NCBI GenBank assembly: GCA_025966365.1
Contig: JAICWV010000001.1
Location: 911-64,910 of the forward strand
Length of the DNA stretch: 64,000 bases
Direction: 5' to 3'
Source: Chloroflexota bacterium
Lineage (GTDB): Bacteria; Chloroflexota; UBA5177
Part shown: positions 20,216 through 63,650 of the stretch, one piece after another
Layout: every line of letters begins with the position of its first letter
Position numbering within the stretch: the first letter of the stretch is position 1
Notes under the pieces: generated by a model
The model's database searches: none
What the model saw: only the letters and a program-made list of their open reading frames with translations
Told to the model about the DNA's origin: nothing
Program-made: the position numbers and the translations under genes

Positions 20216-20281
20216 CCGGAAGGGACGACGGGGCGGACCGCCAATGGCGGGCCGCCCCGTGGACGGAAAGAGGAGACGAGT

Positions 20282-24660: not shown

Positions 24661-24669
24661 GGCGACGCC

Positions 24670-46088: not shown

Positions 46089-46403
46089 CTATCGAGCGGC
46101 ACCGCCCGTGGACGGAAGCGACGAAATGCGGCCACTGTTGGTCGTTGCCCCGGTACCGTACGACGGCGCGCTCCCCACGACAGGTTTGGTTCCTGCCACC
46201 GGATAGGTTCCACCAGCACCCGTCTTCACCGGCGCATGGGGTTTGACGGTCGCGACTCTCCGTACGGGAGTCTTGGTCGGAGGGGGGGTCTTGTAGGCAT
46301 GAGTGGTCGATTGACTTCGATGCGCCAGCGTCGGAGTTGCGGCCAGGCCCATCCCCATCGCCACCGCAATCGCGAGGACGGAGACGGCGCGCTTACTCTT
46401 CAT
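46089..46403 (-). CDS. small secreted Pro/Thr-rich protein
   Basis: Signal peptide MKSKRAVSVLAIAVAMGMGLAATPTLA. AAGGTGAAGGA lies 4 nt upstream of the ATG. Ends ...SSLPSTGGAAR. Confidence 0.5.
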   Translation of the reverse strand: MKSKRAVSVLAIAVAMGMGLAATPTLAHRSQSTTHAYKTPPPTKTPVRRVATVKPHAPVKTGAGGTYPVAGTKPVVGSAPSYGTGATTNSGRISSLPSTGGAAR

Positions 46404-46647
46404 TATCCTTCACCTTTCTCACAGGCTCCACGCAGATGACTTCGTTGTTGAGTCCTAGCGTACTAGAGAAACGTGGATACGTCAACTAAAAGCTTCAGTC
46501 ATCACGGGCCCCGGATTGTTGCGGCGCGTACTGTCTCACCAGCCGCGGTCAGGGATATCCGTCACCTGCACGTCTTGACGTTGCATGTGGCGAGGCGTAA
46601 CCTTGTACTACCTCGGACGCGCCTATCCACGTGAGTAGCGAGCAGCC

Positions 46648-49431
46648 ATGACCGAGCTCTCCCCCGCCGTCGCCTCCCCTCCTGACGACCCGGCAACGCA
46701 GTTCCTCGCCTTCCTCATCGCCGACGTCCGCGGCTACACCAGCTTTACGGTCGAGCACGGTACGCCGGCCGGGGCCCGGCTGGCCAGGAAGTTCGCCGAG
46801 CTCTCGAAAGTTCTGGTGGCGGCACGTGGGGGCGAGGTGATCGAGCTGCGTGGCGACGAGGCACTCGCGATTTTCGCCGATCCGCGTCAGGCGCTATACG
46901 CGGCGGCGGAAATGCAAGAGCGCTTCCAGCAGGAGATGGAGGAGGATCCTTCCCTCCCACTGAAGGTCGGCATCGGCGTGGACGCCGGTGATGTGGTCCC
47001 CGTGGAGGGCGGCTATCGCGGTCTGGCGTTGAACCTGGCCGCGCGGCTGTGCAGCCTGGCCAAGGCCGGCGAAGTATATGCAACCGAGGGAATCGTCCAC
47101 CTCTCCGATAAATTGGACGGCTACGTCTACGTCGAGCGCGGCCGTGTCGCGCTCAAAGGGTTCTCGGACCTGGTCCGGGTGATCCAGGTGCTCCCTGAAG
47201 GAGAGCTTCCGGCAGGGTTCCCGCCGCTGGTGTCACTGGTGGCCAGGCCCAGCAACCTCCCCTTACAACCAACTCCGTTCGTCGGCCGCGAGGCCGAAAT
47301 CGCGGCCGTGACCGACATGCTCCGACGCGACGACATCCGCCTCCTGACGCTCACCGGTCCGGGAGGAACCGGGAAGACCCGGCTCGCTCTGCAGGGCGCG
47401 GCGGCGGTGCTGGACGACTTCCAGCGCGGAGCTTTCTGGATCCCGCTGGGCTCCGTGGCCGACCCCGGCTTGCTGGCCTCTACCATCGCGGGCACACTCA
47501 AAGTGAAGGAAGCACCGGGGGTCCCCATCCTCGAGACCCTGTCGGACTATTTGAAAGATCGGCAGATGCTGCTGGTGCTGGATAACTTCGAGCACCTGGC
47601 GGACGCGGCACCCGTGGTCGCAGCGCTGCTGGCGGCCTGTCCGGACCTGAAGATTCTCACCACCAGCCGCTCTCCACTTCACGTAAGCGGCGAGCACACC
47701 TTCGATGTTCCCCCACTGACGCTGCCCAACCTCCAGCGGCTTCCGTCGGTCGAGGAGCTGCTGTCGTACGATGCCATCGCGCTCTTCGTGCAACGGGCGC
47801 AGGCAGCCAGGTCCGACTTTACACTCACCGCCGAGGTTGCTCGGCCGGTGGCGGAGATCTGCGCCGGCGTCGACGGCCTGCCCCTGGCGATCGAGCTTGC
47901 CGCCGCAAGAATCAAAGTCTTCCCACCACCGATCCTGCTGCGCCGCCTCTCCAGGCGGCTGAGCCTGCTTACCGGGGGCGCCCGCGACCTCTCGGCCCGG
48001 CAGCAGACGCTGCAGGCGACCATCGACTGGAGCTTCAGCCTGCTCGATCCCGGCGAGCAGCGGATCTTTGCCCGCATGGCCGTCTTTGCCGGCGGCTCTA
48101 CCCTCCATGCCATCGGCCGGGTGTGCATGGAGCCGGATGAACACCTGGATGAGGGCACTCTGGCATCGCTGGTGGATAAGAGCCTGATGCGGAAGGAGGG
48201 AGGAGACGATCGCTTCTTCATGCTCCGGACGATCCGGGACTACGCCTGGCAGCGGCTGGAGCTCAGTGGCGATACCGATCCAATGCAGCGCCGCCATGCC
48301 TCCTACTATCTCGATCTGGCCAGGGAGGCCGAGCCGGCATTTCGCGCACCCGACCAGGACATCTGGATGAGCCTGCTGGAGCGAGAGCACGACAATATGC
48401 GCGCCGCTCTCAGCTGGGCCCTGGAAGGCGAGGATCGCGAGCTGGCGCTGCAGCTGAGCGCCGCGCTCCATCGGTTCTGGCAGGTCCACGGTCACCTGAC
48501 CGAGGGACGGCAGTGGGTCGAGCAGTCGCTGGAGCGGGCAGGGGAAGTGCGCACCCGCGACCAGATCGAAGCGCTCGTCGGCGCCGGATGGCTGGCATTT
48601 TACCAGGATGACATCGACAGATCGGAACGCTTTCTGTCCAGGGCGCTCTCCCTGGCGGAGGAGCTGAACGACGAAATCGGCCGCGCCGACGCGCTTTACG
48701 GTCTGGGCTGTATTGCCGATGCGCAGGGCGACTACGATCGCGCCGAGACGCTCATCGAGGAGTGTCTGGACGCCTATCTCGGTCTGAACGATACCTGGGG
48801 CGTGGCCCTGGCCATGAACAACCTCGGTCTCATTGCCAAATACCGCGGCGAGCTGGAGCGAGCGCAGGAGCTGATGGAGGAGGGGCTGGAGCTGGCACGG
48901 CACCTGGGCCAGCGGCGTGCCCTCGGCATCCTCCTCTTCAACCTCGGCTGCGTTCACTGGTGTATCGGCGATATGTCCGGGGCCAGGGAGCGCTACCAGG
49001 AAGCGCTGGTCGAGCTTCAGGACGTCGGCGAGCGGTTGGTCACAGCGATGACGGAAGGGGAGCTTGGCCTGGTGGCAGGCGCCGAGGGCGATTATTCCCG
49101 CGCCCAGGAGCTGCTGGCGCAAACCCTGGAGACGTACCAGGAGCTCGATTACAGGCCGGGCATCCCGGAGTGGCTGGAGAACCAATCCCGCATCGCCGGG
49201 TTCCGGGGTGACGCAGAGCGCGCGGCCCTGCTCTACGGTGCCGCCGATGCTCTCCGCCAGGAGCTCAATCTGTCGCTCCCCGTCGTGGACAAAAACGCGC
49301 ACGAGCGAGATCTGGAACCGGCTCGCTCGCAGCTGGGCGAGGATTGGCAAACCGCCCTCCACAGAGGTCGTGAGCTGACAGCCGAGCAGGCGATCGAGCT
49401 GGCACAGGCCGCATCATCGGTACCGGGCTAA
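46648..49431 (+). CDS. STAND-type signalling protein: class III adenylyl/guanylyl cyclase domain - NB-ARC/AAA ATPase - TPR repeats
   Basis: Cyclase motifs (FLIADVRGYTSF, GDEALAIF, GIGVDAGDV, NLAARL). P-loop LTGPGGTGKTRLA. C-terminal TPR array. Confidence 0.8.
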   Translation: MTELSPAVASPPDDPATQFLAFLIADVRGYTSFTVEHGTPAGARLARKFAELSKVLVAARGGEVIELRGDEALAIFADPRQALYAAAEMQERFQQEMEEDPSLPLKVGIGVDAGDVVPVEGGYRGLALNLAARLCSLAKAGEVYATEGIVHLSDKLDGYVYVERGRVALKGFSDLVRVIQVLPEGELPAGFPPLVSLVARPSNLPLQPTPFVGREAEIAAVTDMLRRDDIRLLTLTGPGGTGKTRLALQGAAAVLDDFQRGAFWIPLGSVADPGLLASTIAGTLKVKEAPGVPILETLSDYLKDRQMLLVLDNFEHLADAAPVVAALLAACPDLKILTTSRSPLHVSGEHTFDVPPLTLPNLQRLPSVEELLSYDAIALFVQRAQAARSDFTLTAEVARPVAEICAGVDGLPLAIELAAARIKVFPPPILLRRLSRRLSLLTGGARDLSARQQTLQATIDWSFSLLDPGEQRIFARMAVFAGGSTLHAIGRVCMEPDEHLDEGTLASLVDKSLMRKEGGDDRFFMLRTIRDYAWQRLELSGDTDPMQRRHASYYLDLAREAEPAFRAPDQDIWMSLLEREHDNMRAALSWALEGEDRELALQLSAALHRFWQVHGHLTEGRQWVEQSLERAGEVRTRDQIEALVGAGWLAFYQDDIDRSERFLSRALSLAEELNDEIGRADALYGLGCIADAQGDYDRAETLIEECLDAYLGLNDTWGVALAMNNLGLIAKYRGELERAQELMEEGLELARHLGQRRALGILLFNLGCVHWCIGDMSGARERYQEALVELQDVGERLVTAMTEGELGLVAGAEGDYSRAQELLAQTLETYQELDYRPGIPEWLENQSRIAGFRGDAERAALLYGAADALRQELNLSLPVVDKNAHERDLEPARSQLGEDWQTALHRGRELTAEQAIELAQAASSVPG

Positions 49432-49445
49432 GACATGGGAGTGAT

Positions 49446-50573
49446 GTGCGGGCGCTTCTAGCGGCTCTGTGCTTTGCGAGCGTGCTGATGCTCGGCGCCT
49501 CCGGCGGCAGCTCATGGCCGATGTCGAGTCACGATCCCGAGGCAACCAACTTCAACAGCGGCGAAACCTCCCTCACCCCCGGCAACCTTCGGCATCTGCA
49601 TCCGGTGTGGAAGCAGACCGGTCACCTCTCCGGGTTCGTTGTCGCGAGCGGTCGTGTATACGCCGCGTTTCCGCAAGGGATTCTGGTACTTCAGCCACGG
49701 ACAGGGAAACGGCTCATGCTGGTAACGCTCAGATCTCTTCACCTGACATCGGCGCTGCTGGCCGTGAACCTTGCCTACTCGAGAGGCGTGCTCGTGGTCG
49801 CGACGCACGACGCCATCATTGCCATTCAGGCACACTCCGGCCGGTTCCTCTGGTCATTTCCGGTGAGCTTTACGACGGGGGTGCTGGTGCAAGGCACAAC
49901 GGTGTTCACGGGAAGCTACTGCTTCAATGGCTGTCCCACGCGCGCCCTTGATCTACGCACCGGCAAGATCCTCTGGGAGAATGCGACGGGGGGACTGCTG
50001 CAGGCAATTGTTGGCGGGCGAGTATATGAGGGGCTTCTCTGGCACGGCTCGTGTCAGAACCGTGTCTTGAGCGCTGACAGCGGTGCTCTGATTACGATCC
50101 TCCCCTCTTGTACGCAGCCGATTGGCGCCGGCAACCACCTGTACGCAGAGGTCTTTCCCGGCGATGCTCACCGGCCAAACATGCTCGGCGGCCTCTCGCC
50201 CGCCGGCCGGTTGACGTGGAGTATCCCCCTTGGGAAGGCCGACGAGCACCCGCTGGCGCTGGGCTATGGCACAATCTTCGCCGCCGCCCACGGACGCCGC
50301 GACGCCCTGGTGGCCGTGAGCACGCGCGCGAAACGCGTCCTCTGGCGGCGTCCCGTGGAGGGCTCCAGTGCTCTCCTGCTGGCGAGCCACATGGTTTTCG
50401 TGGTCGACAAAGAAAGCCGAAGCGTGAAGGTGCTGACGGTGGCGAGTGGCCGAACCATCAGGACCATCCGCGTCCCCGGATCCGACAAGTCTAACCCGCT
50501 CTCTGGGACCGTCGTGGCGGACGGAGCAGTCTATGCGTGGCTCTTTAATGGGCTGGTGGCGATGAGGCCGTGA
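49446..50573 (+). CDS. secreted PQQ-like beta-propeller repeat protein
   Basis: Signal peptide. Repeated G-x-hydrophobic-Y/W-A...G-x-hydrophobic PQQ/BamB-like blades (RVYAA, FLWSF, KILWE, RVLWRR). Confidence 0.6.
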   Translation: MRALLAALCFASVLMLGASGGSSWPMSSHDPEATNFNSGETSLTPGNLRHLHPVWKQTGHLSGFVVASGRVYAAFPQGILVLQPRTGKRLMLVTLRSLHLTSALLAVNLAYSRGVLVVATHDAIIAIQAHSGRFLWSFPVSFTTGVLVQGTTVFTGSYCFNGCPTRALDLRTGKILWENATGGLLQAIVGGRVYEGLLWHGSCQNRVLSADSGALITILPSCTQPIGAGNHLYAEVFPGDAHRPNMLGGLSPAGRLTWSIPLGKADEHPLALGYGTIFAAAHGRRDALVAVSTRAKRVLWRRPVEGSSALLLASHMVFVVDKESRSVKVLTVASGRTIRTIRVPGSDKSNPLSGTVVADGAVYAWLFNGLVAMRP

Positions 50574-50587
50574 AGGCGGCTGTCTCC

Positions 50588-52333
50588 TTACTTGAAGTGG
50601 AAGTTGGCCAGATGCTGGGTGGTGTCCGCCAGGGTGACGGTGAGGACCCGGCAGGTCCCCTTCCAGCTCGAATCGGTCTTCCAGGCGTACGTGTATTGAT
50701 CAGCCGTGGCGTCGTAGCTCAAGCTGCTGTTTCCGGCCGTCACCGTCTGATCGATTTGCGATGACGTGGAGGACAGAGATCCGCAATCGACCTGTTGCGA
50801 CGCCGGAGAGCCGGCCGGGAAGATGCTCAGCCCCTGGTTCCCGGTCAGGCTGAACTTCACCGGGACGGTGCTGCCCGCCTTTGCCGTGTTGACAACCGTG
50901 GGATTATCTACCGGCTGGAAGAAGCCCTTGAAGTTGTAGATCACGGTGTAGGTGCACGCCATGGACGTGCCGGTGTTGCCGGCAACATCCGTGGGGGCCG
51001 GCGCGGTGACGGTGTGCGGCCCCACCGTGGAGGTATCGAGCGGGATTGAGCCGGTTGCCTGGGTCGCCACGCCGGAGCCATTGGAGTTGTCGGTGGCGGT
51101 CCATGTCGCCGCGGGCGGCGAGGACCCAAGGATCACCGTCGAGGGGCAGGTACCCGCATCAAAGGCCACGGTGGGAGCGGTGCTGTCGATTTTGAACGTC
51201 AGCGTGTGCGTCGACTCCACGTCCGGAGTCGGAGACGCAGAATCCTCCGAGTGAAATTGCAGCGTGTGTGTTCCATCGCCCTGGACGGTCAGAGAGTTCC
51301 CTGCCTGCGACGAACCCCCGTCAACAGAGTAGTAGGTCGTGACGTTACCACCCAGGTAGTACACCTTGTGCGGCGCCAGGCTGACGGAAACATCCTCCCG
51401 ATACCAGCCGTTTTGATCCGGAGGCAGATAGGAGGCGGTGGTCTGCGGCGGAGCCTGATCGACCACGCAATCCTGGACCAGGCTCGTGCTGGGATCAGGC
51501 TGCACATCGAACGACGGGGTGTTGTTGGGGTTATTGGGATCGACACCTGAGCCGGTCGGCTCCTGGTCAGTTTGCAGGACATCATCGAAGCTGGAGCCAT
51601 CGGTGTTCGCTGTGAAGTCCCCATCTGCGCCCGTGCCGAAGGGGGGCGCGGCTCCATTTTCGCCATCGTCGGTGGCTACCCACCCGCCAATACGGCCGGC
51701 ATCGTCGCCATTTGAATCGGGGAAGGCAGCGGGCCCTCCTGTCCTATCGTCGTCCTCGTTGAGCAGCCCATTGGTTCCTGGAGCCCCATGATCGAGACGC
51801 CAGATGGAGGCAACGATCTCCTCACCCACGCTCTGCGTGGCGTAGTGAACGATCTGGGTGTCCCCGGTCCAGGTCCCGTCCGCATTGGTGGCGGGCGATC
51901 CCACGTGGGCATCCGAGGTCGAATCGGTGCTCGGGGAGGTGAAGAGCATGTGGGGGAAGCTTCCCTCGGTGATCGGGACCTGAGTCGGGGAGCTATTCGT
52001 GTTGGATGGCGTGCCGTAGTCACGAATATCCGCTATCTGCAACGAATGCGCCTCGTGGCCCGTATTGCGCAGGTCTCCGAGCTCCTGGTAGGCGACATTG
52101 ACCGCGATTCCGTCGGTGCAGATGTAGTTGCTCAGCGTGTAGAGGTTGTCCATTCCCTCGTCGCCACCGCCGAAGGCCCTGGGATCCGAGGCGAAGCTCA
52201 TGCCATTGGCCGCGGCGGCGGACGCAAGCTGGGTTCCCGGCGCCGTCCGACCGCCCACTATGCGGGCGCTACCGCTTCCAAGCACACCCGCGACCACGGT
52301 AATCACGATGAAACTCAAGATTCTCTGGTACAT
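50588..52333 (-). CDS. secreted acidic (Asp/Gly-rich, Ca-binding-like) protein with C-terminal beta-domain
   Basis: Signal peptide MYQRILSFIVITVVAGVLGSGSA. DxDxDG-like acidic repeats. The C-terminal domain has P-x-K-F-like segments (FKGFFQPV, TVPVKFSL). Strong SD AGGAGGAAGGAAGAGGAG. Confidence 0.6.
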   Translation of the reverse strand: MYQRILSFIVITVVAGVLGSGSARIVGGRTAPGTQLASAAAANGMSFASDPRAFGGGDEGMDNLYTLSNYICTDGIAVNVAYQELGDLRNTGHEAHSLQIADIRDYGTPSNTNSSPTQVPITEGSFPHMLFTSPSTDSTSDAHVGSPATNADGTWTGDTQIVHYATQSVGEEIVASIWRLDHGAPGTNGLLNEDDDRTGGPAAFPDSNGDDAGRIGGWVATDDGENGAAPPFGTGADGDFTANTDGSSFDDVLQTDQEPTGSGVDPNNPNNTPSFDVQPDPSTSLVQDCVVDQAPPQTTASYLPPDQNGWYREDVSVSLAPHKVYYLGGNVTTYYSVDGGSSQAGNSLTVQGDGTHTLQFHSEDSASPTPDVESTHTLTFKIDSTAPTVAFDAGTCPSTVILGSSPPAATWTATDNSNGSGVATQATGSIPLDTSTVGPHTVTAPAPTDVAGNTGTSMACTYTVIYNFKGFFQPVDNPTVVNTAKAGSTVPVKFSLTGNQGLSIFPAGSPASQQVDCGSLSSTSSQIDQTVTAGNSSLSYDATADQYTYAWKTDSSWKGTCRVLTVTLADTTQHLANFHFK

Positions 52334-52350
52334 GCTCCTCTTCCTTCCTC

Positions 52351-52387
52351 CTGTGGCCGGAAATGGTCTCCTGCCTCCCGGCCACAG
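52351..52387 (-). promoter_or_regulatory. perfect 10-bp inverted repeat (CTGTGGCCGG-N17-CCGGCCACAG) in the 5' leader beside the RBS of the 50588..52333 gene
   Basis: Read directly from the sequence. Sits 18-55 nt upstream of the start codon, adjoining the SD. Confidence 0.4.
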
Positions 52388-52651
52388 CGCGCCCGATTCC
52401 TGGGCGCGCAGCTACCTAAGCCCGCATGTAGTCTCCAATCCACGCGCCGCGCGGCGTTGTTACCCAGGCGGGCGCCGGAGCGCCTACTGTTGCCTGTGTT
52501 CGCCGGGAAGCGATGGCTACCATGAGGATTTCAGCGGGTGATTAAAACCAGGGTATACCCCTCCATGACTTTCGTCAACTCGGTCTTGACAATGGACAGT
52601 GGAGTGCGCCGCTGGGTTTTGTACCGGACGCCATCGAGGGCGGCCGTTCGG

Positions 52652-54634
52652 CTACAGGTGCGGGCCCTGGAAATACAGGTGTGGCTCGAGCCAGTGGTTG
52701 GGTGAGACCACCGGCGGCGGCTGCCGGGGAAGAGGTATGGGCTGGATGGCGCGAGGCACGATGGGCGCGGTGATAGACCACTGGCGGTCGGGGTGCATGA
52801 GGCGCCAGGTTCTGGTTCCTCCCAGCGCATCGTGAAGCGTCACCACCACCGAGTCCGGGTGGCTTCCCGGCTGATGCTGAAGGACCAGGCCGTAGCGCCG
52901 TCCACCCGACCAGGAGAGGGCATTGGGCGGCACGACGTAGTGCAGCCTGATAACCGCGGTCTTGCCGCGCCGAACGATGACATAGCCGGGAAACTCGGTC
53001 TTGCCGTAGGCGGGCCCCGGCGTCCACGGGTCTGTCCACCCAGACTGATCCACAAGCTGGCCACCGGCGGGAACGAGCACGCGGAGGTAGCTGGCGTAAT
53101 CGTCCGGACCTCCCAGCATGCCGCCTCCCGGACCGACGCCCTGGCTCATCCTGTCGGCCGGCTCCGGCTCGTTCCAGAAGCGGACCGCCAGCCGCGCGTC
53201 AAGCCAGCGGTCGGGCCGGACCGTGACGTTGTAGCGAACCGACTCGTGCACGTAGGGGTTGATCTTGTTGAAGGACAGGTTGCTGTCGACCAGGTACAGA
53301 TAGTCGCCGGTCGTCCGGCTGATCTCGCCGGAGGCGCCGAGGAGGCGAACCAGCTGCTCGTCCCGGGCGTCGGAAAAATGGAGCAGGAGATCGCCTCTGG
53401 CCACGGCGTCTTGCAATTGCGAGGCGAGACGCAGCCAGCCCCGGACATCCAGCGACTGAATCCGGGCGATCAGGTGCCCGGCCACGATGGGAATGAATCG
53501 CTTGGATGCGTTTGGCGCCCAGTGGGCGTAATAGTCCGTGAGCTGAGCGAGGTTATCGGCGGTGACCTGGCGGTGGTACTCGGGGACATACATGGGGCCG
53601 GTCGCGGCAAGGACGGCGGCTGCCGCCTGCGGGGTCACATTGATGACGCCGGTGGGGTTGGCACCCAGGTCCATGCGCACGAAATAGCGCTCCACCGCAG
53701 CGGTGGTGGGAAAGTCCGGTGACCAGTTGGAGTCGCGGAGCAGCCACCAGATCTCGTTATACAGCCGTATGGGCTCGGGGGCAGGAACCCGGAGCTGCTC
53801 GCGCTTCCGGATCTCGCTATTTTCGAAATGTTGTTTCACGGAGCCGCGATTGACCGTCACCAGGCCGAAGCTTCCGATGAACCCTCCCGTCGGCCGCAAC
53901 TCCAGCGGATCCTGATAGGCGATGAAGTACGTCATGGGGGTGGTTGCGCCGAGAAGGCGGGGGGCGAGCGTCAGGCTCAGGCAGGCAGCGCGCAGCGGCG
54001 GGAGCGCGGCATCAAAGGTGTGCAGCGCCGACGCCAGTTGAGCGGGTGGGTGCGCCGGGATCGTGCGGCGGATCCGCGCTGCCGAGCTGAAGAGCGCATA
54101 TGCGTGCTGGAAGGCGCCGCGCTGCGATGCAATACCCACTGAGAGCTCTTGCAGCCGGTGCCCACCCTTCTGCGCGCGTGCCCGGTGGACCACCGGACGG
54201 AGTGCATCGAGCAGCACCAGAATCCCATCCGAGGTGGTGGAGGCGAGCCGGGTGGCCGGCGGGGCCGCCGCCAGCTGACTGCCGATAACGGGAACCCACG
54301 CCAGATGCGCCAGGATCGGGCTGAGCGGCTCCAGACGCGCGTCGGCCGCCCCGAAATCAGCCCGGGCCCGGCGTACGCGGACCGTGGCCCCGGCGAGGGC
54401 CGTATCCGCTGAGGCAGCCGTGGTCACTCCACTCAGCCCTGTCCTGGCGAGATCGATCTGTGTGACTCCGGAGGTGATGAGGCCGCGCGCGGAAAGGAGC
54501 AGGTAGGCCGAGAGAATCAGCGCCGCCAGGAGGACGAGCACGGCAACACCTGCCAGGAGCAGCGGAGTGCGCGAGTGTCTTCGGGGCGCCGGAAGGGGCC
54601 GGGCCTCCGGCTCGACCGCGGGTCGTCTCACCAC
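52652..54634 (-). CDS. membrane-anchored extracytoplasmic protein, DUF4012-like
   Basis: N-terminal Arg-rich tail plus one TM helix (LLLAGVAVLVLLAALILSAYLLL), then a large ectodomain. Motif YQDPLELRPTGGFIGSFGLV recalls DUF4012. GTG start 1 nt from the upstream sortase stop. Confidence 0.5.
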   Translation of the reverse strand: MVRRPAVEPEARPLPAPRRHSRTPLLLAGVAVLVLLAALILSAYLLLSARGLITSGVTQIDLARTGLSGVTTAASADTALAGATVRVRRARADFGAADARLEPLSPILAHLAWVPVIGSQLAAAPPATRLASTTSDGILVLLDALRPVVHRARAQKGGHRLQELSVGIASQRGAFQHAYALFSSAARIRRTIPAHPPAQLASALHTFDAALPPLRAACLSLTLAPRLLGATTPMTYFIAYQDPLELRPTGGFIGSFGLVTVNRGSVKQHFENSEIRKREQLRVPAPEPIRLYNEIWWLLRDSNWSPDFPTTAAVERYFVRMDLGANPTGVINVTPQAAAAVLAATGPMYVPEYHRQVTADNLAQLTDYYAHWAPNASKRFIPIVAGHLIARIQSLDVRGWLRLASQLQDAVARGDLLLHFSDARDEQLVRLLGASGEISRTTGDYLYLVDSNLSFNKINPYVHESVRYNVTVRPDRWLDARLAVRFWNEPEPADRMSQGVGPGGGMLGGPDDYASYLRVLVPAGGQLVDQSGWTDPWTPGPAYGKTEFPGYVIVRRGKTAVIRLHYVVPPNALSWSGGRRYGLVLQHQPGSHPDSVVVTLHDALGGTRTWRLMHPDRQWSITAPIVPRAIQPIPLPRQPPPVVSPNHWLEPHLYFQGPHL

Positions 54635-56034
54635 CAGAGCCGGATAGGCTTGCCGCCGGATGAAAGCTCTTGCACGCGATTGTTCTGGCTATCCACCACG
54701 TACACATTGCTGCGCGCGTCCACCGCAACGCCGTAGGGCTTTCGGAATTGGCCGAGACCTGATCCCGTCTTGCCCCACGTCGCGCTCAGTTTGCCCGAGG
54801 TCGAATAGCGCAGCACGCTGTCGATCTTGGGGCTCACCACGTAGACGTGACCGCTGCCATCTGCCGCCACGCCCTCTGGTGGGACGGACTCCCAGCGCTT
54901 GAGCTTGACCTTGACCTTCCACATCTTCAGGAAGTCCCCGTTGGGCGAGAGCTTCTGAATCCGTCCGTTTGCCGAGTCGGCCACGTAGATGGTCCCGTCC
55001 GGCGCGACCGCCACGCTGTCCGGGTACCAGAATTCGCCGTGGCCGTGACCGAAATGCCCCCAGGTGGCGAGCACCTGCCCGGAGGGCGACAGCTTCACAA
55101 TCTGATTGGCGCTCGAATTCGCCACGTACACGTTCCCCTGAGCGTCCACGGCAACACCGGCGGGATCATCCAGACTGACCTTGACTGATCCGGTGTCACC
55201 CCACTGCGCCAGCGGCTGACCGGTGGCAGAAAAGACCTGAACTCGATGATTGCCGTCATCCGCTACATAGACGGTGCCGTTGAGGGCCACGGCCACGCCG
55301 GAGAGTCCCCGGAACTGGCTGGTTCCCGTGCCGTAGGTACCCCACCTGTGCAGTGCACGCCGCCGCGCGTCGAACGTGGCGATCCTGTTGTTGCCGGCAT
55401 CGGCAATGAACACATCTCCCTTGCGGTTGACCGCGACGCCGAGCGGTGTCGTCAGCGAGGGCAGCGCGGCGCCACCGGGGAGCGTGGTGAGGGTGGCATA
55501 GACGATCTGCCGGTGGTCGTATCCGGTCCCGTCGCGGTGGAACACGCCCGCGCAGGTGATCAGGAAGAGGCCGCGCTCCTTGGTGGCGGCATCCATAAAG
55601 CCAGTCGGCATTCCGCTGTCGGAGTACTCGCGATTCCACCGCACCTTGAATGTCAGGCTCTGACCGTCAGCGTATTGCACGGTAATTCCGTCACCCCGCA
55701 CCAGGTCCTTCAAGTGCCAGAACACGGCGGGACAGCAGTATGAGTCGAGGTGGCCGTAGATCTGGGCGCGCCCCATATCGCCCGGGCGCGGTCCCTGCGA
55801 GTACCAGGCGACATCTCCCCATTTGTACGGCGCCTCGGTATCGGTTGGATGCGTCATGGAGACTGACTCGACGGCCGTGCGGATGCCGAGTCTGGGAATG
55901 CTCACCACCCTGGGCCAGCCGGGCGGCACGATTTGCATCCGCGTGGCGATAGGGGTTGCCGCGCGTAACGTTGAGGCCGGCGTGACGATCGGAAACAGGA
56001 TCAGTCCGATCATGACGATCAGCGCGCGGTTCAT
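54628..56034 (-). CDS. sortase (class E/F-like) fused to six NHL beta-propeller repeats
   Basis: Signal anchor MNRALIVMIGLILFPIV. Sortase catalytic pattern (IYGHLDS...GDGITV...LFLITCAG...R). Six NHL repeats (GVAVDAQGNVYVAD, PDSVAVAPDGTIYVAD...). Confidence 0.7.
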   Translation of the reverse strand: MNRALIVMIGLILFPIVTPASTLRAATPIATRMQIVPPGWPRVVSIPRLGIRTAVESVSMTHPTDTEAPYKWGDVAWYSQGPRPGDMGRAQIYGHLDSYCCPAVFWHLKDLVRGDGITVQYADGQSLTFKVRWNREYSDSGMPTGFMDAATKERGLFLITCAGVFHRDGTGYDHRQIVYATLTTLPGGAALPSLTTPLGVAVNRKGDVFIADAGNNRIATFDARRRALHRWGTYGTGTSQFRGLSGVAVALNGTVYVADDGNHRVQVFSATGQPLAQWGDTGSVKVSLDDPAGVAVDAQGNVYVANSSANQIVKLSPSGQVLATWGHFGHGHGEFWYPDSVAVAPDGTIYVADSANGRIQKLSPNGDFLKMWKVKVKLKRWESVPPEGVAADGSGHVYVVSPKIDSVLRYSTSGKLSATWGKTGSGLGQFRKPYGVAVDARSNVYVVDSQNNRVQELSSGGKPIRLWW

Positions 56035-56206: not shown

Positions 56207-56311
56207 GGCTCTCACATAGATTTGACGCTTCACGCAGCAGGCGGCCCCATTGGCCGCGTAGAGGCTTATTTACAGCGATTGCAAGACGGAAGGGGCGGCA
56301 CGGGAGGGATC

Positions 56312-56923
56312 ATGGACGGGCGAGCAGAAGATCTAGCACCCTTGGCGCGGTCCAAAGGGCTCGTTGTTCGCGAGCTCGACGGTGAGATTCTCATCTTTGA
56401 CCGCGAGAGTGATGCAGCGCACTGTTTGAATGATGTGGCAGCGGGCGTCTGGAAACGTTGCGATGGCTATACCACCATTGCCGAGATGGTGGACGATCTA
56501 TCGAGCACCTCGGGAACTCGGGTTGACGAGTACGTGATTTACAAAGCGCTTGCCGACCTGAGCAAGAAGGATCTCTTGCTCGAGGAGGTGAAGTCGCCAC
56601 GATCACGCAAGGAGATGTCGCGGCGCGACATGATGGTGAAGTCCGCGGCCGCCGCAGTCATCATGATCCCGGTGATCAAGTCGCTGTCGTCACCCAGTGG
56701 CGCTTACGCAGCAGGTGTATGCACCGGCTGCGTCGCGCACAATCAGCCCTGTTCCAGCACGCAACCGTGCTGCGGCGCCGGCGTTAATTGCAAACTCTCC
56801 GGCTGCTGCTATCTCGGGACTGCCTGTTCCGGGACCGGCACCTGCGGTGTCTGCAGCGGATGTGAGTGCCAGCCCAATAGCCACACCGGCTGCGGTCAGC
56901 CGTGCGCGGAGACCGGCTGCTAA
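56312..56923 (+). CDS. PqqD-like (RRE) domain fused in frame to a twin-arginine-like signal/TM segment and a 16-Cys C-terminal domain
   Basis: GGGAGGG 4 nt upstream of ATG 56312. PqqD pattern LVVRELDGEILIFDRESDAAHCLNDVAAGVWKRCDGYTTIAEMVDDL. Then MSRRDMMVKSAAAAVIMIPVIKSLSSPSGAYAAG. Then VCTGCVAHNQPCSSTQPCCGAG...CAETGC. Confidence 0.6.
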   Translation: MDGRAEDLAPLARSKGLVVRELDGEILIFDRESDAAHCLNDVAAGVWKRCDGYTTIAEMVDDLSSTSGTRVDEYVIYKALADLSKKDLLLEEVKSPRSRKEMSRRDMMVKSAAAAVIMIPVIKSLSSPSGAYAAGVCTGCVAHNQPCSSTQPCCGAGVNCKLSGCCYLGTACSGTGTCGVCSGCECQPNSHTGCGQPCAETGC

Positions 56924-56985
56924 GACGCCAACCGAGTAGCGGATCCATGCAGGTTCGTCCTGCGTGTGGGTTTCAGATTCGGATG

Positions 56986-57019
56986 GGCGGACGCGGGTTC
57001 TCTTCCACCCACGTCCGCC
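56986..57019 (+). terminator. GC-rich hairpin (GGCGGACGCGGG-loop-CCCACGTCCGCC, 11/12 bp) 60 nt downstream of the Cys-rich gene stop
   Basis: Read from the sequence. No U-tract (I-shaped), as is common in high-GC bacteria. Confidence 0.35.
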
Positions 57020-57069
57020 TGTGGGGCACTGGTGCGTCCACACCACAGCCGATTCGCGCACGGTCCGGA

Positions 57070-57098
57070 TTGATTTGAGCCGGAACTCCGCGTATTAT
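57070..57098 (+). promoter_or_regulatory. sigma-70-like promoter candidate (TTGATT-17-TATTAT) upstream of the MauE-thioredoxin gene
   Basis: Near-consensus hexamers with a 17-nt spacer, ~50 nt upstream of the ATG at 57151. Confidence 0.4.
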
Positions 57099-57150
57099 CA
57101 GTACCAACCTGCCGTGGGGCAGTTCATTTGACCCGTTGGGAGAGTCCTTG

Positions 57151-58698
57151 ATGCCTGTACTTGTCCTCATTGTCCGCCTGTTGCTGGCGGGCGTGTTTGT
57201 GTTGTCCGCGACCACAAAGCTTTTTGATCGCCTGGGCACACGGCAAGCTGTTGCGGACTTTGGTGTGCCGGAAGCGCTCGTGGAGGGCGTTGCGTTCGCG
57301 CTGCCGGTGGCCGAGCTGCTCGTCGCGGTGCTTCTCATCCCCGGCTCGATCGCCTGGGTCGGCGGGATCGGGGCGGCAATCATCCTGGTGGCTTTCTGCG
57401 TCGCCATCTCAGTCAATCTCGTGCGCGGCAATATCGTGGATTGCCACTGCTTCGGGCAGGTCCATTCAGAGCCCATCAGCACGCGGGTACTGGTTCGCAA
57501 CGCGGTCCTCATCGTGGCAGCTGCATTCGTCGCGATAGCGGGTCGTCCCAATCGAGACCCCAGCGCCTTTCAATCACTGGGATTGACGTCCAGCTTCCGG
57601 TGGGAGGCCGCGGGCATGGGTCTGCTGATGCTCGCGCTGCTCGGAACACTCACCTGGCTCGTGCTCCGCATGAGCGCTGACAACAAGCAATTATTTATCA
57701 GGATGAAGCTGCTCGAGGCCGACATTCGGAGCGGAGGCGTTACTGCCCGTGCCGGCGACGAGGAGGACGCCGTTGAGGACGAAGATCCGAACGTGGGGAA
57801 GCCCGCTTCGTGGCTGGAGCTGCCGAACCTGACGGGCCAGAAAATAACTCTGGCGGATCTCGCGGCACGCGGGAAGCCGATTCTGATGGTCTTTGTCCAT
57901 CCCTCCTGCGCCACGTGCTCGGTGGTGCTGCCCATGGTCGCCCGCTGGCAGCAGGAGTACTCATCCCGATTGACGATTTCGATCATCAGCGGCGGCAAGC
58001 TCCGGGCGAATGTCGAGAAAGCGGAGGAGTACGGCCTTCAGGAAGTCCTGGTGCAGAAACGGCACGAGATAGAGCAGGCATACTCGATTCCCAGAGTACC
58101 GAGCGCAGTCATGGTCTTGCCGGATGGAAGGATTGGAAGTCCCGTCGCGACCGGGCCCGACGACATCCGCGCCCTGTTTGACATCGTGCTGGACCTCGTC
58201 CACGAGCAGATGACCGGTGCTCCCACGCCGCACGTCCATGACAATCCCAATGGCCATAGCCAGGTGGCATGGCCCGATATCAGCATCCCGGCCCCAACGG
58301 TCAGGCTTCCGGACGCAACCGGCCGAATCGTCGACCTGAAGGAGTTCCGAGGTCAGCGGGTTATGCTGCTCTTCTGGGGAACCAACTGCTACCACTGCGA
58401 CCAGATGCATCTCGATATCAAGGAGTGGGAGGCGGATCCGCCGGAGGGGGCCCCAACCCTTGTCATGGTCGCCGTCGGTCCCGAGGAGGAGGTGCGTGCC
58501 TCGGCCAGGGAGTACAGGTCCACCATGCTCGTGGATCCCGAGTTTGAGGTTGGACCCACCTTCAACATCAGTGGCGCCCCCCTCGCAGCGCTGATCGACG
58601 AGGATGGAACATATGTCACGCGTATCGCGGGCGCATACGACATCCTCGGAGTGCTCCGGAACGAGATTCCATGGCCGTCCGCCCTCACCCGGAGCTGA
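57151..58698 (+). CDS. MauE/DoxX-family membrane domain fused to two thioredoxin-like (TlpA/MauD-like) domains
   Basis: Four TM helices with a CHCFG motif (MauE-like). Two thioredoxin-fold segments with CxxC (HPSCATCS; GTNCYHCDQ). GGGAGAG 8 nt upstream of the ATG. Confidence 0.75.
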   Translation: MPVLVLIVRLLLAGVFVLSATTKLFDRLGTRQAVADFGVPEALVEGVAFALPVAELLVAVLLIPGSIAWVGGIGAAIILVAFCVAISVNLVRGNIVDCHCFGQVHSEPISTRVLVRNAVLIVAAAFVAIAGRPNRDPSAFQSLGLTSSFRWEAAGMGLLMLALLGTLTWLVLRMSADNKQLFIRMKLLEADIRSGGVTARAGDEEDAVEDEDPNVGKPASWLELPNLTGQKITLADLAARGKPILMVFVHPSCATCSVVLPMVARWQQEYSSRLTISIISGGKLRANVEKAEEYGLQEVLVQKRHEIEQAYSIPRVPSAVMVLPDGRIGSPVATGPDDIRALFDIVLDLVHEQMTGAPTPHVHDNPNGHSQVAWPDISIPAPTVRLPDATGRIVDLKEFRGQRVMLLFWGTNCYHCDQMHLDIKEWEADPPEGAPTLVMVAVGPEEEVRASAREYRSTMLVDPEFEVGPTFNISGAPLAALIDEDGTYVTRIAGAYDILGVLRNEIPWPSALTRS

Positions 58699-59585
58699 AT
58701 CCATTCCACGCTGATCGGCTGGTTGTGCTCCGGGGTGAGGATCTCCCCCGGCTGAGGTACCCGGTGGCCGGCTTGCGTGAGCTCGATGGGCGGGCCTGGG
58801 GTGCCGGGATAGCAGTCAGCGCCTACGGCGTTCGTCTCGGCGTGCGAGCAGAGCATTCCTCTGTGCTGCTTGGCCTTGGTGATGTTCTCCCGCCGGGATG
58901 GCGCAGCGTGACCGGACCGTCACCGCGAGTCGATCGCCTGTACTCTCTGGTCTTTCCGCAGGATGGTCCGCCGCTCGTGTACGACAACGCCACGTCGTGG
59001 ATCGGGCTCAGCTCCTTCCCGTGGCCTGATGTTCTGGAGCAACTGACGACGTCCCGCGTGGTGCGTCTGGCCACCCGGTACGTCTTCGTGCATTCCGGCG
59101 TCGTGGCATGGCAGGACCGAGCCATCGTGATTCCCGGCGACAGCCGGTCCGGAAAGACCACACTGGTGGCCGCGCTGATTCGGGCCGGCGCAACGTACTA
59201 TTCGGATGACTTCGCCGTCATCGATTCGTCGGGGCTGGTTCGCCCATATGCGCGGCCACTGAAAATACGACGCTCGAGGTTCGGAGAGTTTGACAGGCAC
59301 CGGGTGGAAGAACTGGGTGGCCGGCGGGGGATCAATCCGATTCCCATGGGCGCGGTGGTACTGGCGCCCTATGAAGAAGGAGCCGGCTGGCAGCCGCACA
59401 CGCTCTCGCGGACCGAAGGGCTCGCGTTGCTCATGATGAACAGCATGCAAAAGCGACGGCGGCCCGAGTGGGTGCTGGACGCCCTGACGAGAGCTGCGTC
59501 TCATGCCGTAATGATTGGCAGCAGTCGGGGCGACGCCGACGAAACGGCGCGGCGCATTCTCGAGACCGCCTCCACCCTCACGTGA
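58671..59585 (+). CDS. HPr-kinase-related serine kinase (HprK C-terminal-domain homologue)
   Basis: P-loop IPGDSRSGKTTLVAALIRAG, comparable to the HprK GxSGxGKS. ~300 aa. 28-nt overlap with the upstream gene. Confidence 0.65.
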   Translation: MAVRPHPELNPFHADRLVVLRGEDLPRLRYPVAGLRELDGRAWGAGIAVSAYGVRLGVRAEHSSVLLGLGDVLPPGWRSVTGPSPRVDRLYSLVFPQDGPPLVYDNATSWIGLSSFPWPDVLEQLTTSRVVRLATRYVFVHSGVVAWQDRAIVIPGDSRSGKTTLVAALIRAGATYYSDDFAVIDSSGLVRPYARPLKIRRSRFGEFDRHRVEELGGRRGINPIPMGAVVLAPYEEGAGWQPHTLSRTEGLALLMMNSMQKRRRPEWVLDALTRAASHAVMIGSSRGDADETARRILETASTLT

Positions 59586-60532
59586 GCCGTTCTTTCAGCG
59601 CAGCGGCTCACAACCTCCGGGTGTGGGGCCACGCCCTCCCCATACTCGAGAAGCTGTCCGAGGCGGACATTCCGGTGGTCATTCTCAAGGGTCTTCCTCA
59701 AATCGAGGATCTGTATGGCGACCCGGGGACACGAATGACCTCGGATGTCGACATGCTCGTTCCGTCCCGGCACGCACGATCCACGCTCGCGCTTCTTGCC
59801 GACGCAGGATGGCAGCCGGGAAGCGCGTCCACGCTGCGCTGGCTCACCTCATCCCAGGGGGCCGAAGCCGCATCGTCGCGTCCATGGCACATGCATCCGC
59901 CTCCGAACCTGACCGGCTGCCTCATCGATCTGCATTTCGATCGCATGACCCGGAGCCCGAAGCCGACTCTTGACCCGAGCATCTGGGAGCGAGCCGTGCG
60001 GATGTCACGTGACGGTGCCGATTTCCTGGTCCTCGGTCGGGAGGATCAACTGCTTTTTCTGTGCTACCACTTCGTGACCGACCACCTTCCCTGGCACAAG
60101 CTTCGAGATATCGAGGTGCTCCTGGGCCGCTCGACAGAGCTGGATTGGGACTACATTGCCCGGCGCGCTCGCCTCTCCGGTGTCACCATTGCCGTCTACC
60201 TTGCGTGCCGGCTCGCGGCGCGCGATGCAACGGATCCAGTCCCGGACAACTGGCGGGGTGTCGCTCCGGTGGACCGTCTCCGCGCCTCGGTCCTGGCCGC
60301 CATGTTGGATCGCCGCCCCGGGCTTGCCCAGTCGCGTTACTGGGCGCTCGTGTGGCTGCTCGCGCATGATCGTCCCTGGGACATGCGGACGGTGTGGCGC
60401 CACATCTTCTTCCCTGACCGGGTTACCATCGCGGCTGAATATCTTGGCCGCTGGCCATCGCGGGCCGAGTATCTCGCCGAACTGGGGCGCATCTACCTGC
60501 GTCGTATCCGGAAAAGTTTCGGACGCGCATAG
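59582..60532 (+). CDS. nucleotidyltransferase-family protein (PF14907-like)
   Basis: GTG start overlapping the upstream stop (GTGA). Pol-beta-type motif ...KGLPQIEDLYGDPGTRMTSDVDMLV (G..D.D). Confidence 0.55.
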   Translation: MSRSFSAAAHNLRVWGHALPILEKLSEADIPVVILKGLPQIEDLYGDPGTRMTSDVDMLVPSRHARSTLALLADAGWQPGSASTLRWLTSSQGAEAASSRPWHMHPPPNLTGCLIDLHFDRMTRSPKPTLDPSIWERAVRMSRDGADFLVLGREDQLLFLCYHFVTDHLPWHKLRDIEVLLGRSTELDWDYIARRARLSGVTIAVYLACRLAARDATDPVPDNWRGVAPVDRLRASVLAAMLDRRPGLAQSRYWALVWLLAHDRPWDMRTVWRHIFFPDRVTIAAEYLGRWPSRAEYLAELGRIYLRRIRKSFGRA

Positions 60533-62537: not shown

Positions 62538-63650
62538 ATGCCCCTCATCGCCGCAGCACTTCTGGTAACGGTGGCCTCGTACGTCGGGGTCGCGTTGGTT
62601 CGATTCTATGCCCCGCGCGTCGGCTTTTTCGATCTGCCCAATGAGCGGAGCTCGCACGCTCGTCCAATACCTTCCGGCGGCGGTCTTGCCTTTGCCGTCA
62701 TCACCCTTGGCGCCTGGTGGTGGTTGCTCGAGTTCCATCCGAGCATTCCCCTGGTTCAGGCGGTCAGGACGCAGCACGCGCTGGCCTTTATCATTGCCGG
62801 CGCCCTCATCGCCGGAATCAGCCTGATCGACGATCTCGGTCATGTGCCGGTCGTCTTCCGACTGGCGGTCCATGCCATCGGGGCGGCGGTCTTTGTCGCG
62901 TTCTTCGCGTGGTGGTCAGCGCTGAATCTGCCACTCCTGGGCTGGGTCACCCTGGGAACCGCCGGGGTATTCATCTCGATCTTCTGGATCGTCGGCATGG
63001 TCAATGCCTACAACTTCATCGACGGTCTCGACGGAATGGCCGGTGGCCAGGCGGCCGCAGCCGGGCTTGGGTGGGTGGCTCTGGGCTTCTCAACCGGCCA
63101 CTTCGCCATCGAAGCCATGGGTGCTCTGCTTGCCGCCAGCAGTATTGGGTTCCTCTTCCACAACTGGCACCCTGCCAGGATCTTTATGGGAGACGTGGGC
63201 AGTACCTTCCTGGGATTCTGCTTTGCCATTCTGCCGATCATCGCCGCTCAATACGATCCACGATTGGCGCTGGCGGGCGTGCTTCTCGTGTGGCCCGCAC
63301 TCTTCGATACCGGCTTTACCATCGTCAATCGCCTGCGCCGCGGCGAGAACGTCTTTACCGGGCACAAAGAGTTCCTCTTTCACCGCCTGGTAGCAGCTGG
63401 ATGGAGCCATGCCGCCGCATCCACGCTCTATTTCACGCTGCCGCTGGCTGGAGCAGGCCTGGCCTTCACCTGGCAGTACGGAAGCACGTCGCTGCACGTC
63501 GCTGCGTTGTGCTCCATCGTGCTTCTCTGCGTTGGTCTCTGGGCACTCGTCCGCGACCAGGAGAAGCGACACCTGGCGCAGCTGCAGGAAGTTCCCTCGG
63601 CCGACAGCATGCGGCCGGAACCCGCCAGGAGAGTGGCCGGGCGGGTCTAG
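62538..63650 (+). CDS. UDP-HexNAc:polyprenyl-phosphate HexNAc-1-phosphate transferase (WecA/MraY family)
   Basis: About 10-11 TM helices. Conserved motifs NAYNFIDGLDG and MGDVGS. Confidence 0.85.
   Translation: MPLIAAALLVTVASYVGVALVRFYAPRVGFFDLPNERSSHARPIPSGGGLAFAVITLGAWWWLLEFHPSIPLVQAVRTQHALAFIIAGALIAGISLIDDLGHVPVVFRLAVHAIGAAVFVAFFAWWSALNLPLLGWVTLGTAGVFISIFWIVGMVNAYNFIDGLDGMAGGQAAAAGLGWVALGFSTGHFAIEAMGALLAASSIGFLFHNWHPARIFMGDVGSTFLGFCFAILPIIAAQYDPRLALAGVLLVWPALFDTGFTIVNRLRRGENVFTGHKEFLFHRLVAAGWSHAAASTLYFTLPLAGAGLAFTWQYGSTSLHVAALCSIVLLCVGLWALVRDQEKRHLAQLQEVPSADSMRPEPARRVAGRV

Follow-up and report, generated by a model that had tools for sequence, protein, structure and literature searches.

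A sortase fused to an NHL beta-propeller, its DUF4012 partner and a candidate LPXTG-tailed mini-protein in a surface-polysaccharide locus of an uncultured Chloroflexota bacterium

A 64-kb stretch of DNA from an uncultured soil bacterium of the phylum Chloroflexota (contig JAICWV010000001.1), here called the window, was analysed with a focus on a gene for a sortase fused to an NHL beta-propeller and on the genes that accompany it. All positions are coordinates of the window. The G+C content of the window is 60-67%, and for every gene examined the closest homologues were found in Chloroflexota metagenome-assembled genomes (MAGs). The genes of main interest all lie on the minus strand and encode the sortase-NHL fusion protein, a DUF4012 membrane protein and a mini-protein that is a candidate sortase substrate. 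Judged by predicted gene content, the sortase-NHL/DUF4012 pair lies inside a large surface-polysaccharide locus that dominates the window. An initial annotation of this region had proposed an operon of the sortase fusion, the DUF4012-like gene and a gene for an acidic secreted protein; the genes that it named are real, but the polysaccharide context, the similarity of the DUF4012 model to the LytR-CpsA-Psr (LCP) fold, the PxKF domain of the acidic protein and the mini-protein had been overlooked.

The sortase-NHL gene (54628..56034, minus strand) is a single open reading frame (ORF) for 468 aa whose product is identical to the protein P0001 of NCBI assembly GCA_025929235.1. A longer reading of 513 aa from the ATG at 56169 is not supported, since the orthologues begin at the MNRAL position (ATG 56034). 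The protein matches the Pfam profile PF04203 Sortase (peptidase C60) with 64.1 bits (gathering cutoff 26.6; profile positions 2-124 of 125) and PF01436 NHL with 124 bits in five significant repeats, and a sixth repeat was recognised by alignment. A Kyte-Doolittle scan revealed an N-terminal hydrophobic segment at aa 1-25 (55960..56034), either a signal peptide or a signal-anchor, with a possible predicted cleavage site after LRA; the structure model has a helix at residues 2-13 and a low-confidence linker at residues 21-33, and AxA-type cleavage sites are present in stand-alone sortase relatives. The sortase domain (aa 37-184; 55483..55926) is connected by a flexible linker (aa 185-196, LPGGAALPS..., predicted local distance difference test (pLDDT) value below 50) to the six-bladed propeller (aa 197-468; 54631..55446). 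In the AlphaFold2 model of the fusion (pLDDT 88.3) these parts are predicted as an eight-stranded barrel (aa 41-184, most of its strands with pLDDT values that exceed 85), the linker and a 24-strand propeller. The NHL part matched the TRIM71 and Thin NHL domains in the PDB by sequence (E = 1e-57), and the propeller superposes on solved NHL domains including that of the PknD sensor with TM-scores of 0.79-0.88 in Foldseek. The Foldseek search with the whole fusion model returned NHL matches only, so that no superposition on a solved sortase was obtained.

The catalytic residues are encoded at 55750-55752 (His95), 55552-55554 (Cys161) and 55510-55512 (Arg175), all on the minus strand. His95 and Cys161 with their surrounding motifs are invariant across 25 aligned sequences, and hhalign paired them with H120 and C184 of Staphylococcus aureus SrtA, albeit weakly (E = 0.08). 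Arg175 in RQIVYA was matched by inspection to SrtA Arg197 in RKIFVA, and in the model His follows strand 4, Cys lies in strand 7 and Arg in strand 8. By alignment and inspection, the triad is complete in the window protein, although the clade departs from the textbook sortase: most relatives, including the fusion member P0005, carry Lys at the position of Arg175, and canonical sortase chemistry is therefore not assured. Among the NCBIfam sortase classes, class F scored best (105 bits, E = 2.9e-30) and class E followed with 20.6 bits; as the class F score is under the curated NF033748 cutoff of 166, the enzyme is labelled class-F-like rather than class F. The closest solved sortase in a PDB search reached an E-value of only 0.15. 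A vicinal pair, Cys100-Cys101, lies five residues past the catalytic His in GHLDSxCCP and is invariant in the whole sortase clade; codons 100-102 are located at 55729-55737, and the loop of aa 98-100 has the lowest confidence of the model. The pair might serve as a redox switch or as a disulfide partner of Cys161.

An uninterrupted sortase-NHL architecture was found in five 90%-identity clusters, P0001-P0005, which are 51-100% identical to the window protein (85, 75, 70 and 51% for P0002-P0005). Since these five clusters keep one uninterrupted ORF down to 51% identity, a missed stop codon or a frameshift artefact was ruled out as the origin of the fusion. The fusion junction corresponds to the C-terminus (LPxGxLG) of stand-alone relatives, and the closest relatives of the sortase domain (45-60% identity) are all stand-alone Chloroflexota proteins, mostly of about 190 aa. 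Scans with exact peptide patterns found no fusion and three stand-alone sortase loci in 185,579 species genomes, and no fusion and eight stand-alone loci in JGI metagenome contigs. A representative-library search with aa 1-240 was dominated by multi-blade NHL proteins, and among its matches only P0005 spanned the junction; this search gives no exhaustive count of fusions. Taken together, the sortase-NHL fusion is well indicated to be genuine and rare across the sequences compared, with its rarity not exhaustively counted. A literature search on PxKF, on sortases with NHL repeats and on Chloroflexi sortases returned nothing relevant.

With respect to this gene, the description in the initial annotation has held. 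Both sortase motifs that it listed, IYGH95LDS and LFLITC161AG, are present, the fusion to six NHL repeats agrees with the two profile matches and six modelled blades, and the three profiles that it had suggested for checking (PF04203, PF01436 and PF13196) were all matched. The two doubts that it had raised, a missed stop between two genes and an incomplete triad, were dispelled by the continuous ORF in P0001-P0005 and by the presence of His95, Cys161 and Arg175, and its remark that sortases normally stand alone fits the nearest relatives.

The stand-alone orthologues (L011, L012, L015, L016, L022 and L024-L026) mostly carry Lys at the catalytic-Arg position, and most end in LPxGxLG. In these loci the neighbourhood is conserved and of the housekeeping kind, with proC, a gene for a Usp-like membrane protein, convergent gatB/gatA/gatC and, except in L015 and L026, a divergent gene for a protein of about 320-390 aa with no Pfam match. 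No substrate gene adjoins the sortases of these loci, and no mini-protein was found beside the stand-alone sortases inspected. A pair of genes for a CpsB/CapC phosphatase and a transglutaminase-like protein occurs both in the window (19430-21490) and in L013 (L013:13738-15827), a locus of a Chloroflexia MAG in which a stand-alone sortase belonging to this clade is encoded about 5 kb away.

The DUF4012 gene (52652..54634, minus strand; 660 aa) follows the sortase-NHL gene directly. The initial annotation had placed the sortase stop and the DUF4012 start 1 nt apart; in fact, two adjacent GTG codons precede the end of the sortase stop TGA (54630-54628), the one at 54634 giving an overlap of 7 nt and the one at 54631 an overlap of 4 nt. 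A 4-nt stop/start overlap is also found in L005, L006, L007 and L017, and the pair is adjacent in L018-L020 as well. The conserved overlap supports translational coupling of the two genes. In the public annotation DUF4012 begins 87 nt later, which cuts the transmembrane (TM) helix; the longer start is better because the TM helix at aa 24-46 needs it and because 660-aa orthologues match. The DUF4012-like call made earlier was borne out by a match to PF13196 with 97.4 bits (cutoff 28), shared by 55 of 55 aligned homologues, and by the predicted N-terminal TM helix. The internal LAATG of the protein was rejected as a sorting motif, as it belongs to the family-wide core motif LxATGPxYVPEY.

In the model of the DUF4012 protein, built with 55 homologues (pLDDT 91.6; predicted TM-score (pTM) 0.89), the TM helix is followed by a long helical bundle up to aa 227, an LCP-like core at about aa 234-440 and a C-terminal beta-sandwich. 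The modelled alpha/beta core starts at aa 233, where the Pfam DUF4012 domain starts, and has the alpha-beta-alpha fold of the LCP core. When the model was compared with the PDB by Foldseek, LCP proteins ranked first, second and fifth (E = 9e-4 to 1e-2). Invariant polar residues of the core are E245, R247, D301, N303, D444, N452, K457 and R518. The layout of LCP proteins, with TM segment, accessory domain, extracellular core and C-terminal domain (PMC7831098), agrees with that of DUF4012, which like LCP proteins has an N-terminal TM anchor and a predicted extracytoplasmic domain and is encoded near glycopolymer genes. DUF4012 is a conserved protein of exopolysaccharide (EPS) and capsule loci in Bifidobacterium, Chloroflexota and bacteria of the Candidate Phyla Radiation (CPR) (PMC5412050, PMC6744442); in the EPS locus of Bifidobacterium longum it lies between the priming transferase and wzz (PMC5412050). 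Distant DUF4012 genes (about 48% identity; L031, L032) are likewise located in polysaccharide loci. On the strength of the modelled fold, a glycopolymer-transfer role like that of LCP proteins is plausible for DUF4012, with the chances about evenly balanced. As a further observation, DUF4012 is fused elsewhere to Wzy_C (O-antigen ligase/polymerase-like), to an NAD-dependent epimerase or to a UDP-glucose dehydrogenase (P0281, P0288, P0305-P0309, P0266), which agrees with a direct role in glycan assembly.

The mini-protein gene (46089..46403, minus strand) encodes 104 aa, with the LPSTG motif at 46104-46118, and no gene is called at this position in the public annotation. The predicted signal peptide, MKSKRAVSVLAIAVAMGMGLAATPTLA, is conserved (...ATPTLA). 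The mature part of about 77 aa is basic (isoelectric point (pI) 11.5, no Asp or Glu) and rich in Ser, Thr, Pro and Gly, contains a central KTGAGG and ends in SSLPSTGGAAR, the candidate substrate peptide being ...RISSLPSTGGAAR. No Pfam or NCBIfam family matched the protein. A pilin-type Lys nucleophile was rejected, since none of the Lys residues is conserved in the relatives from L021 and L008. Upstream of the gene, a promoter-like site TTGACG-N17-TACGCT (46457..46485, minus strand) is followed by the Shine-Dalgarno (SD) tract aaggtgaagga, and the orthologue in L018 is also preceded by such a site, TTGACG-N17-TAGGCT. The initial annotation had stated that no LPXTG substrate lies nearby. This is correct for canonical membrane-anchored signals, as the window showed no LPXTG-type motif followed by a hydrophobic segment and a basic tail, but not for LPXTG motifs in general, since the ORF at 46089..46403 ends in LPSTGGAAR. 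A first regular expression for sorting signals, which demanded the motif, at least 13 uncharged residues and a basic tail in ORFs of at least 120 aa, had returned spurious ORFs only and missed the mini-protein.

Orthologues of the mini-protein were found in three arrangements. In L018-L020 a 103-aa protein ending in SSLPATGGAAH and in L021 a 96-aa protein ending in SALPVSGGAAR are encoded directly after DUF4012; in L008 a 162-aa protein with an internal PLPSTGGGG and the C-terminus SSLPATGGGATH is encoded directly after a 51%-identical sortase-NHL, with no DUF4012 between them. Common to all members, which share 38-67% identity, are a central x-T-G-(G/A)-G-G, a C-terminal LPx(T/S)GG and a basic mature part (pI about 11.5, 0-1 acidic residues) rich in Ser, Thr, Pro and Gly; all of them are without a hydrophobic segment or basic tail past the motif. 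The window protein is 67% identical to the orthologue of L018, and their codons differ at 38 positions by synonymous changes only and at 34 by non-synonymous changes. These codon differences, the conserved signal peptide, the SD tract and the promoter-like site indicate that the mini-protein is the product of a real gene.

Pairwise, the three genes are linked as DUF4012 and mini-protein in L018-L020 and L021, and as sortase-NHL and mini-protein in L008. In L021 the last approximately 13 sortase-NHL codons (...GMPLRLWW stop; L021:1-420) remain ahead of DUF4012, a remnant that shows the ancestral adjacency, the sortase gene having apparently been lost in this lineage. The compact order of L018 is priming transferase, divergent sortase-NHL, DUF4012, the 103-aa gene and then, all in convergent orientation, genes for a glycosyltransferase GT1, a methyltransferase, a carbamoyltransferase, a GT2 and a further GT1; sortase-NHL and the priming transferase are direct, divergent neighbours in both L005 and L018. 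The window shares with L018 the order priming transferase / sortase-NHL, DUF4012, mini-protein / GT1, carbamoyltransferase, GT2, GT1, and differs from it by two insertions, one of PxKF / PQQ_2 / NB-ARC-TPR genes and one of PqqD-like / MauE-thioredoxin / HprK-like / NTP_transf_5 / kinase genes. This comparison indicates that the mini-protein gene keeps its ancestral place beside GT1 and that the insertion of three genes parted it from DUF4012.

The surrounding polysaccharide genes, all on the plus strand, were identified by Pfam matches unless stated differently. They comprise a CpsB/CapC phosphatase (19430-20215), an asparagine synthase (21872-23791), a Wzm/Wzt ABC exporter (23788-25989) and, between 25986 and 46086, an FkbM methyltransferase, about ten GT1/GT2/GT4 transferases, a Wzy-like polymerase and a carbamoyltransferase. 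On the other side of the sortase a polysaccharide tyrosine autokinase/chain-length regulator (60657-62294; TIGR01007, 177.5 bits, cutoff 108) and a Glycos_transf_4 priming transferase (62538-63650; PF00953) are encoded. No LytR_cpsA_psr gene (PF03816) was present among the scanned ORFs of the window, though CpsB-, CpsC/D- and CpsE-like genes are. Divergent from the sortase, the region 56222-60532 (plus strand) encodes a PqqD-like protein whose C-terminus is rich in Cys, a fusion of a MauE/DoxX membrane domain with two thioredoxin-fold domains, a protein resembling HprK-related kinase A (weak, 47 bits) and an NTP_transf_5 nucleotidyltransferase, genes that look like a peptide-modification cassette. 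A PqqD-like gene divergent from sortase-NHL also occurs in L007, and NTP_transf_5 lies beside DUF4012 in L031 and L032.

The gene for the acidic secreted protein (50588..52333, minus strand; 581 aa, ATG 52333) lies downstream of DUF4012. The protein has a pI of 4.2, 61 Asp and Glu residues against 19 Lys and Arg, and an N-terminal hydrophobic segment. It had been described as secreted and rich in Asp and Gly; its acidic and secreted nature was borne out, but Thr, Ser, Gly and Ala outnumber Asp. The PxKF domain, NF038114, was matched with 148.5 bits (cutoff 35) over the whole profile (1-113 of 113) at aa 469-581 of 581 (nt 50591-50929). A weak OmpL47-type barrel match was also obtained, and neither Pfam nor a PDB sequence search gave a match. 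An orthologue in L017, a relative with 85% identity, is 81% identical and carries the PxKF domain with 141.6 bits; in L018-L020, relatives with 75-77% identity, the PxKF gene is absent and the 103-aa LPATG-tailed gene takes its place after DUF4012. Two further genes were inserted together with it: one for a secreted PQQ_2 (BamB-like) propeller (49446-50573, plus strand), convergent with the PxKF gene and conserved in L017, and one for a 927-aa protein with a weak adenylate/guanylate cyclase-like N-terminus, an NB-ARC/AAA ATPase and TPR repeats (46648-49431, plus strand). The opposite charges of the inserted PxKF protein (pI 4.2) and the mini-protein (pI 11.5, neither Asp nor Glu) are a further observation.

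The spacer of 318 nt between DUF4012 and ATG 52333 and the purine-rich SD tract were found as described earlier. Within this spacer, the best-conserved block of the alignment with L017 contains a promoter-like site TTGACG-N17-TACCCT (52550..52578, minus strand), whose function is inferred. Both TTGACG-N17-TAC(G/C)CT sites, at 52550-52578 and at 46457-46485, were missed by a generic sigma-70 consensus scan because the second hexamer matches at three of six positions only. No intrinsic terminator was found on the minus strand between 50300 and 56400. The leader also contains two hairpins (52351..52409, minus strand) that end just ahead of the SD tract, one of 10 bp (52351-52360 / 52378-52387) with a loop of 17 nt and one of 8 bp (52387-52394 / 52402-52409). 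The perfect 10-bp inverted repeat noted earlier is thus real, but it is not remarkable: 12 such repeats occur in the window, with about 0.06 expected per 318 nt. The folding z-score of the leader is -4.6, and no Rfam family matched it. The hairpins are only partly conserved in L017, the one comparator, and covariation does not support them: the 10-bp repeat has lost two of its outer four pairs there, and no change elsewhere compensates for this.

The three-gene operon of the initial annotation could be read such that the acidic PxKF protein is the cargo that is processed or anchored by sortase-NHL and DUF4012. Both the window and L017 have the three genes on one strand and in the same order, all three products carry N-terminal export signals, and an electrostatic pairing of the acidic protein (pI 4.2) with the basic mini-protein is conceivable. 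However, the gene stands behind a 318-nt spacer with a conserved promoter-like site, it is missing from L018-L020 despite the intact pair and it belongs to an insertion that also brought in the PQQ_2 and NB-ARC genes. Because of the promoter-like site and its absence from the 75-77% relatives, the PxKF gene is treated as part of a lineage-specific insertion and not as an operon member. The PxKF protein has neither an LPXTG-like motif nor a C-terminal hydrophobic segment, and as it is also not conserved it was rejected as a sortase substrate. We regard this reading as very improbable.

We propose instead that sortase-NHL, the LCP-like DUF4012 protein and the LPXTG-tailed mini-protein form one extracytoplasmic module within a locus of the cps/eps type, and we consider this about as probable as its opposite. 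A dedicated module is the most economical reading since the three genes are pairwise linked in independent arrangements and all three products are predicted to be exported, N-terminal hydrophobic segments being found in sortase-NHL and DUF4012 and a signal peptide in the mini-protein. Starting from the observed gene structures, domains, fusion, overlap, pairwise linkage and locus context and from the fold similarity of the model, we infer the catalytic steps, the nature of the acceptor, what the propeller does and any glycosylation of the mini-protein. The sortase would be a class-F-like cysteine transpeptidase of a Chloroflexota-specific clade that gained a flexibly tethered six-bladed NHL propeller. 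The mini-protein, with the tail LP(S/A)TGG(A/G)A(R/H), would be exported with no membrane anchor. The single-pass DUF4012 protein may transfer the lipid-linked glycan product of the locus to an acceptor, either the mini-protein or the wall, and the sortase would cut the mini-protein between Thr and Gly and join the product to an amine acceptor of the envelope. The NHL propeller may be a binding module for glycan, wall or substrate, and the PxKF, PQQ-like propeller and NB-ARC/TPR genes would represent a later insertion between DUF4012 and the mini-protein gene.

Several points weigh against a dedicated module. The LPSTG of the mini-protein is followed by nothing but GAAR, so that neither the hydrophobic segment nor the basic tail by which sorting signals are known is present; the motif of the L021 member is LPVSG instead of LPxTG. 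The mini-protein gene of the window is 6.2 kb away from DUF4012 and stands behind a promoter-like site, and the linkage is drawn from about five lineages, most of them represented by contigs of 3-13 kb. The TM-scores between DUF4012 and LCP proteins are modest (0.34-0.46), which makes this a fold-level link from a predicted model; PF03816 matched none of 55 DUF4012 proteins at E-values up to 10, and neither phmmer nor a profile search of the PDB with DUF4012 returned an LCP chain. The distant DUF4012 loci L031 and L032 contain neither a sortase nor a mini-protein. To these points are added the Lys in place of Arg175 in most of the clade and the class F score under the curated cutoff. All evidence for the module is computational, and the organism is uncultured.

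Some of these points would also fit an ordinary anchoring sortase with a surface-binding propeller whose canonical substrates are encoded elsewhere in the genome; the adjacency to DUF4012 and the mini-protein would then reflect co-location of envelope genes, and DUF4012 would act on polysaccharide in a way unrelated to the sortase. The housekeeping setting of the stand-alone orthologues (proC, gatCAB), with no adjacent substrate, and the DUF4012 loci that lack a sortase agree with this, and the view of the genome is confined to 64 kb. Such an arrangement would leave unaccounted for that the 4-7-nt overlap of sortase and DUF4012 is kept in several relatives and that three arrangements place the mini-protein behind DUF4012 or the sortase; moreover, a C-terminal LPx(T/S)GG conserved at 38-67% identity is hard to explain without an enzyme of the sortase type. 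We therefore consider the anchoring alternative rather unlikely. A different doubt concerns the enzyme itself, which might be a protease or a non-catalytic scaffold in a protein that acts mainly as a secreted NHL lectin or sensor on the polysaccharide machinery. Such a role would be in line with the Lys at the Arg position in most clade members, the score under the class F cutoff, the distance to the closest solved sortase (best PDB E = 0.15), an N-terminus that resembles a cleavable signal peptide more than an anchor and the NHL propeller of PknD, which is an extracellular sensor. His95, Cys161 and their flanking motifs are, however, invariant in 25 sequences, the window protein carries Arg175, and the linked mini-protein bears exactly the motif that sortases cleave, and we judge a non-transpeptidase improbable.

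An extension of the proposed module takes up the two motifs of the mini-protein. The sortase might cut both at the conserved internal x-T-G-G-G-G site, which is a perfect LPSTGGGG in L008, and at the C-terminal LPXT-GG site, and an exposed N-terminal oligoglycine might attack the C-terminal acyl-enzyme, so that the peptide is either cyclised head to tail or joined into a linear polymer. As another possibility, the peptide might be ligated directly to an amino group of the locus polysaccharide to form a covalent peptide-glycan conjugate. The propeller would hold the partner in both cases. We consider this distinctly improbable, but if true, sortase chemistry would gain a new natural use through such a cyclisation, polymer or conjugate, and a class-F-like sortase would have a physiological role.

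Class F sortases occur widely among high-GC monoderm bacteria, and the window locus offers a class-F-like enzyme together with a genetically linked candidate substrate. The LCP-like fold suggests that DUF4012 could be the missing polymer-attaching enzyme of EPS and capsule loci. If the proposed module is real, a soluble-type sorting signal, consisting of LPXTG and four residues with no anchor, would widen the definition of a sortase substrate, and standard predictors miss such proteins.

With class F sortases (NF033748; Cutibacterium acnes SrtF; Actinoplanes missouriensis) the window enzyme shares the GH(L/V)DS and TC motifs and the occurrence in high-GC monoderm lineages; unlike them, its clade has the invariant Cys-Cys after the catalytic His and mostly Lys for Arg, and the window member has an NHL propeller. 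A. missouriensis has four SrtF paralogues, and in a 2026 study the deletion of all four gave no phenotype and the roles of class F were reported as unknown (PMC13251363). The six-bladed NHL domain resembles those of the Mycobacterium tuberculosis PknD sensor (1rwi) and of TRIM71 and Thin, is likely a binding module and would be extracytoplasmic as in PknD, but here it is carried by a sortase rather than by a kinase or an E3 ligase. Unlike LCP transferases such as CpsA of streptococcal cps loci, DUF4012 has no PF03816 match and a long four-helix bundle in place of the usual accessory domain. The exosortase/PEP-CTERM systems also combine a dedicated protein-sorting transpeptidase and short-motif substrates within exopolysaccharide loci; this is an analogy only, as they differ by the polytopic membrane fold of the enzyme, by another motif that includes a TM segment and by their diderm hosts.

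The closest precedent, by analogy, appears to be the SrtA-LcpA-GspA system of Actinomyces oris, in which a single protein is the target of both an LCP enzyme and a sortase: the LPXTG protein GspA is glycosylated by LcpA and anchored by SrtA, and lcpA and gspA are adjacent (PMC6381275). In comparison with it, DUF4012 has no detectable sequence similarity to LCP proteins, the window sortase is fused to an NHL propeller and predicted to be translationally coupled to the LCP-like gene, the candidate substrate, with a mature length of about 77 aa, is tiny and comes without the hydrophobic, basic tail of a sorting signal, and the proposed module lies inside a polysaccharide locus. New relative to A. 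oris are hence the NHL fusion, the translational coupling, the anchor-less candidate substrate, DUF4012 in the proposed place of an LCP enzyme and the placement within a polysaccharide locus.

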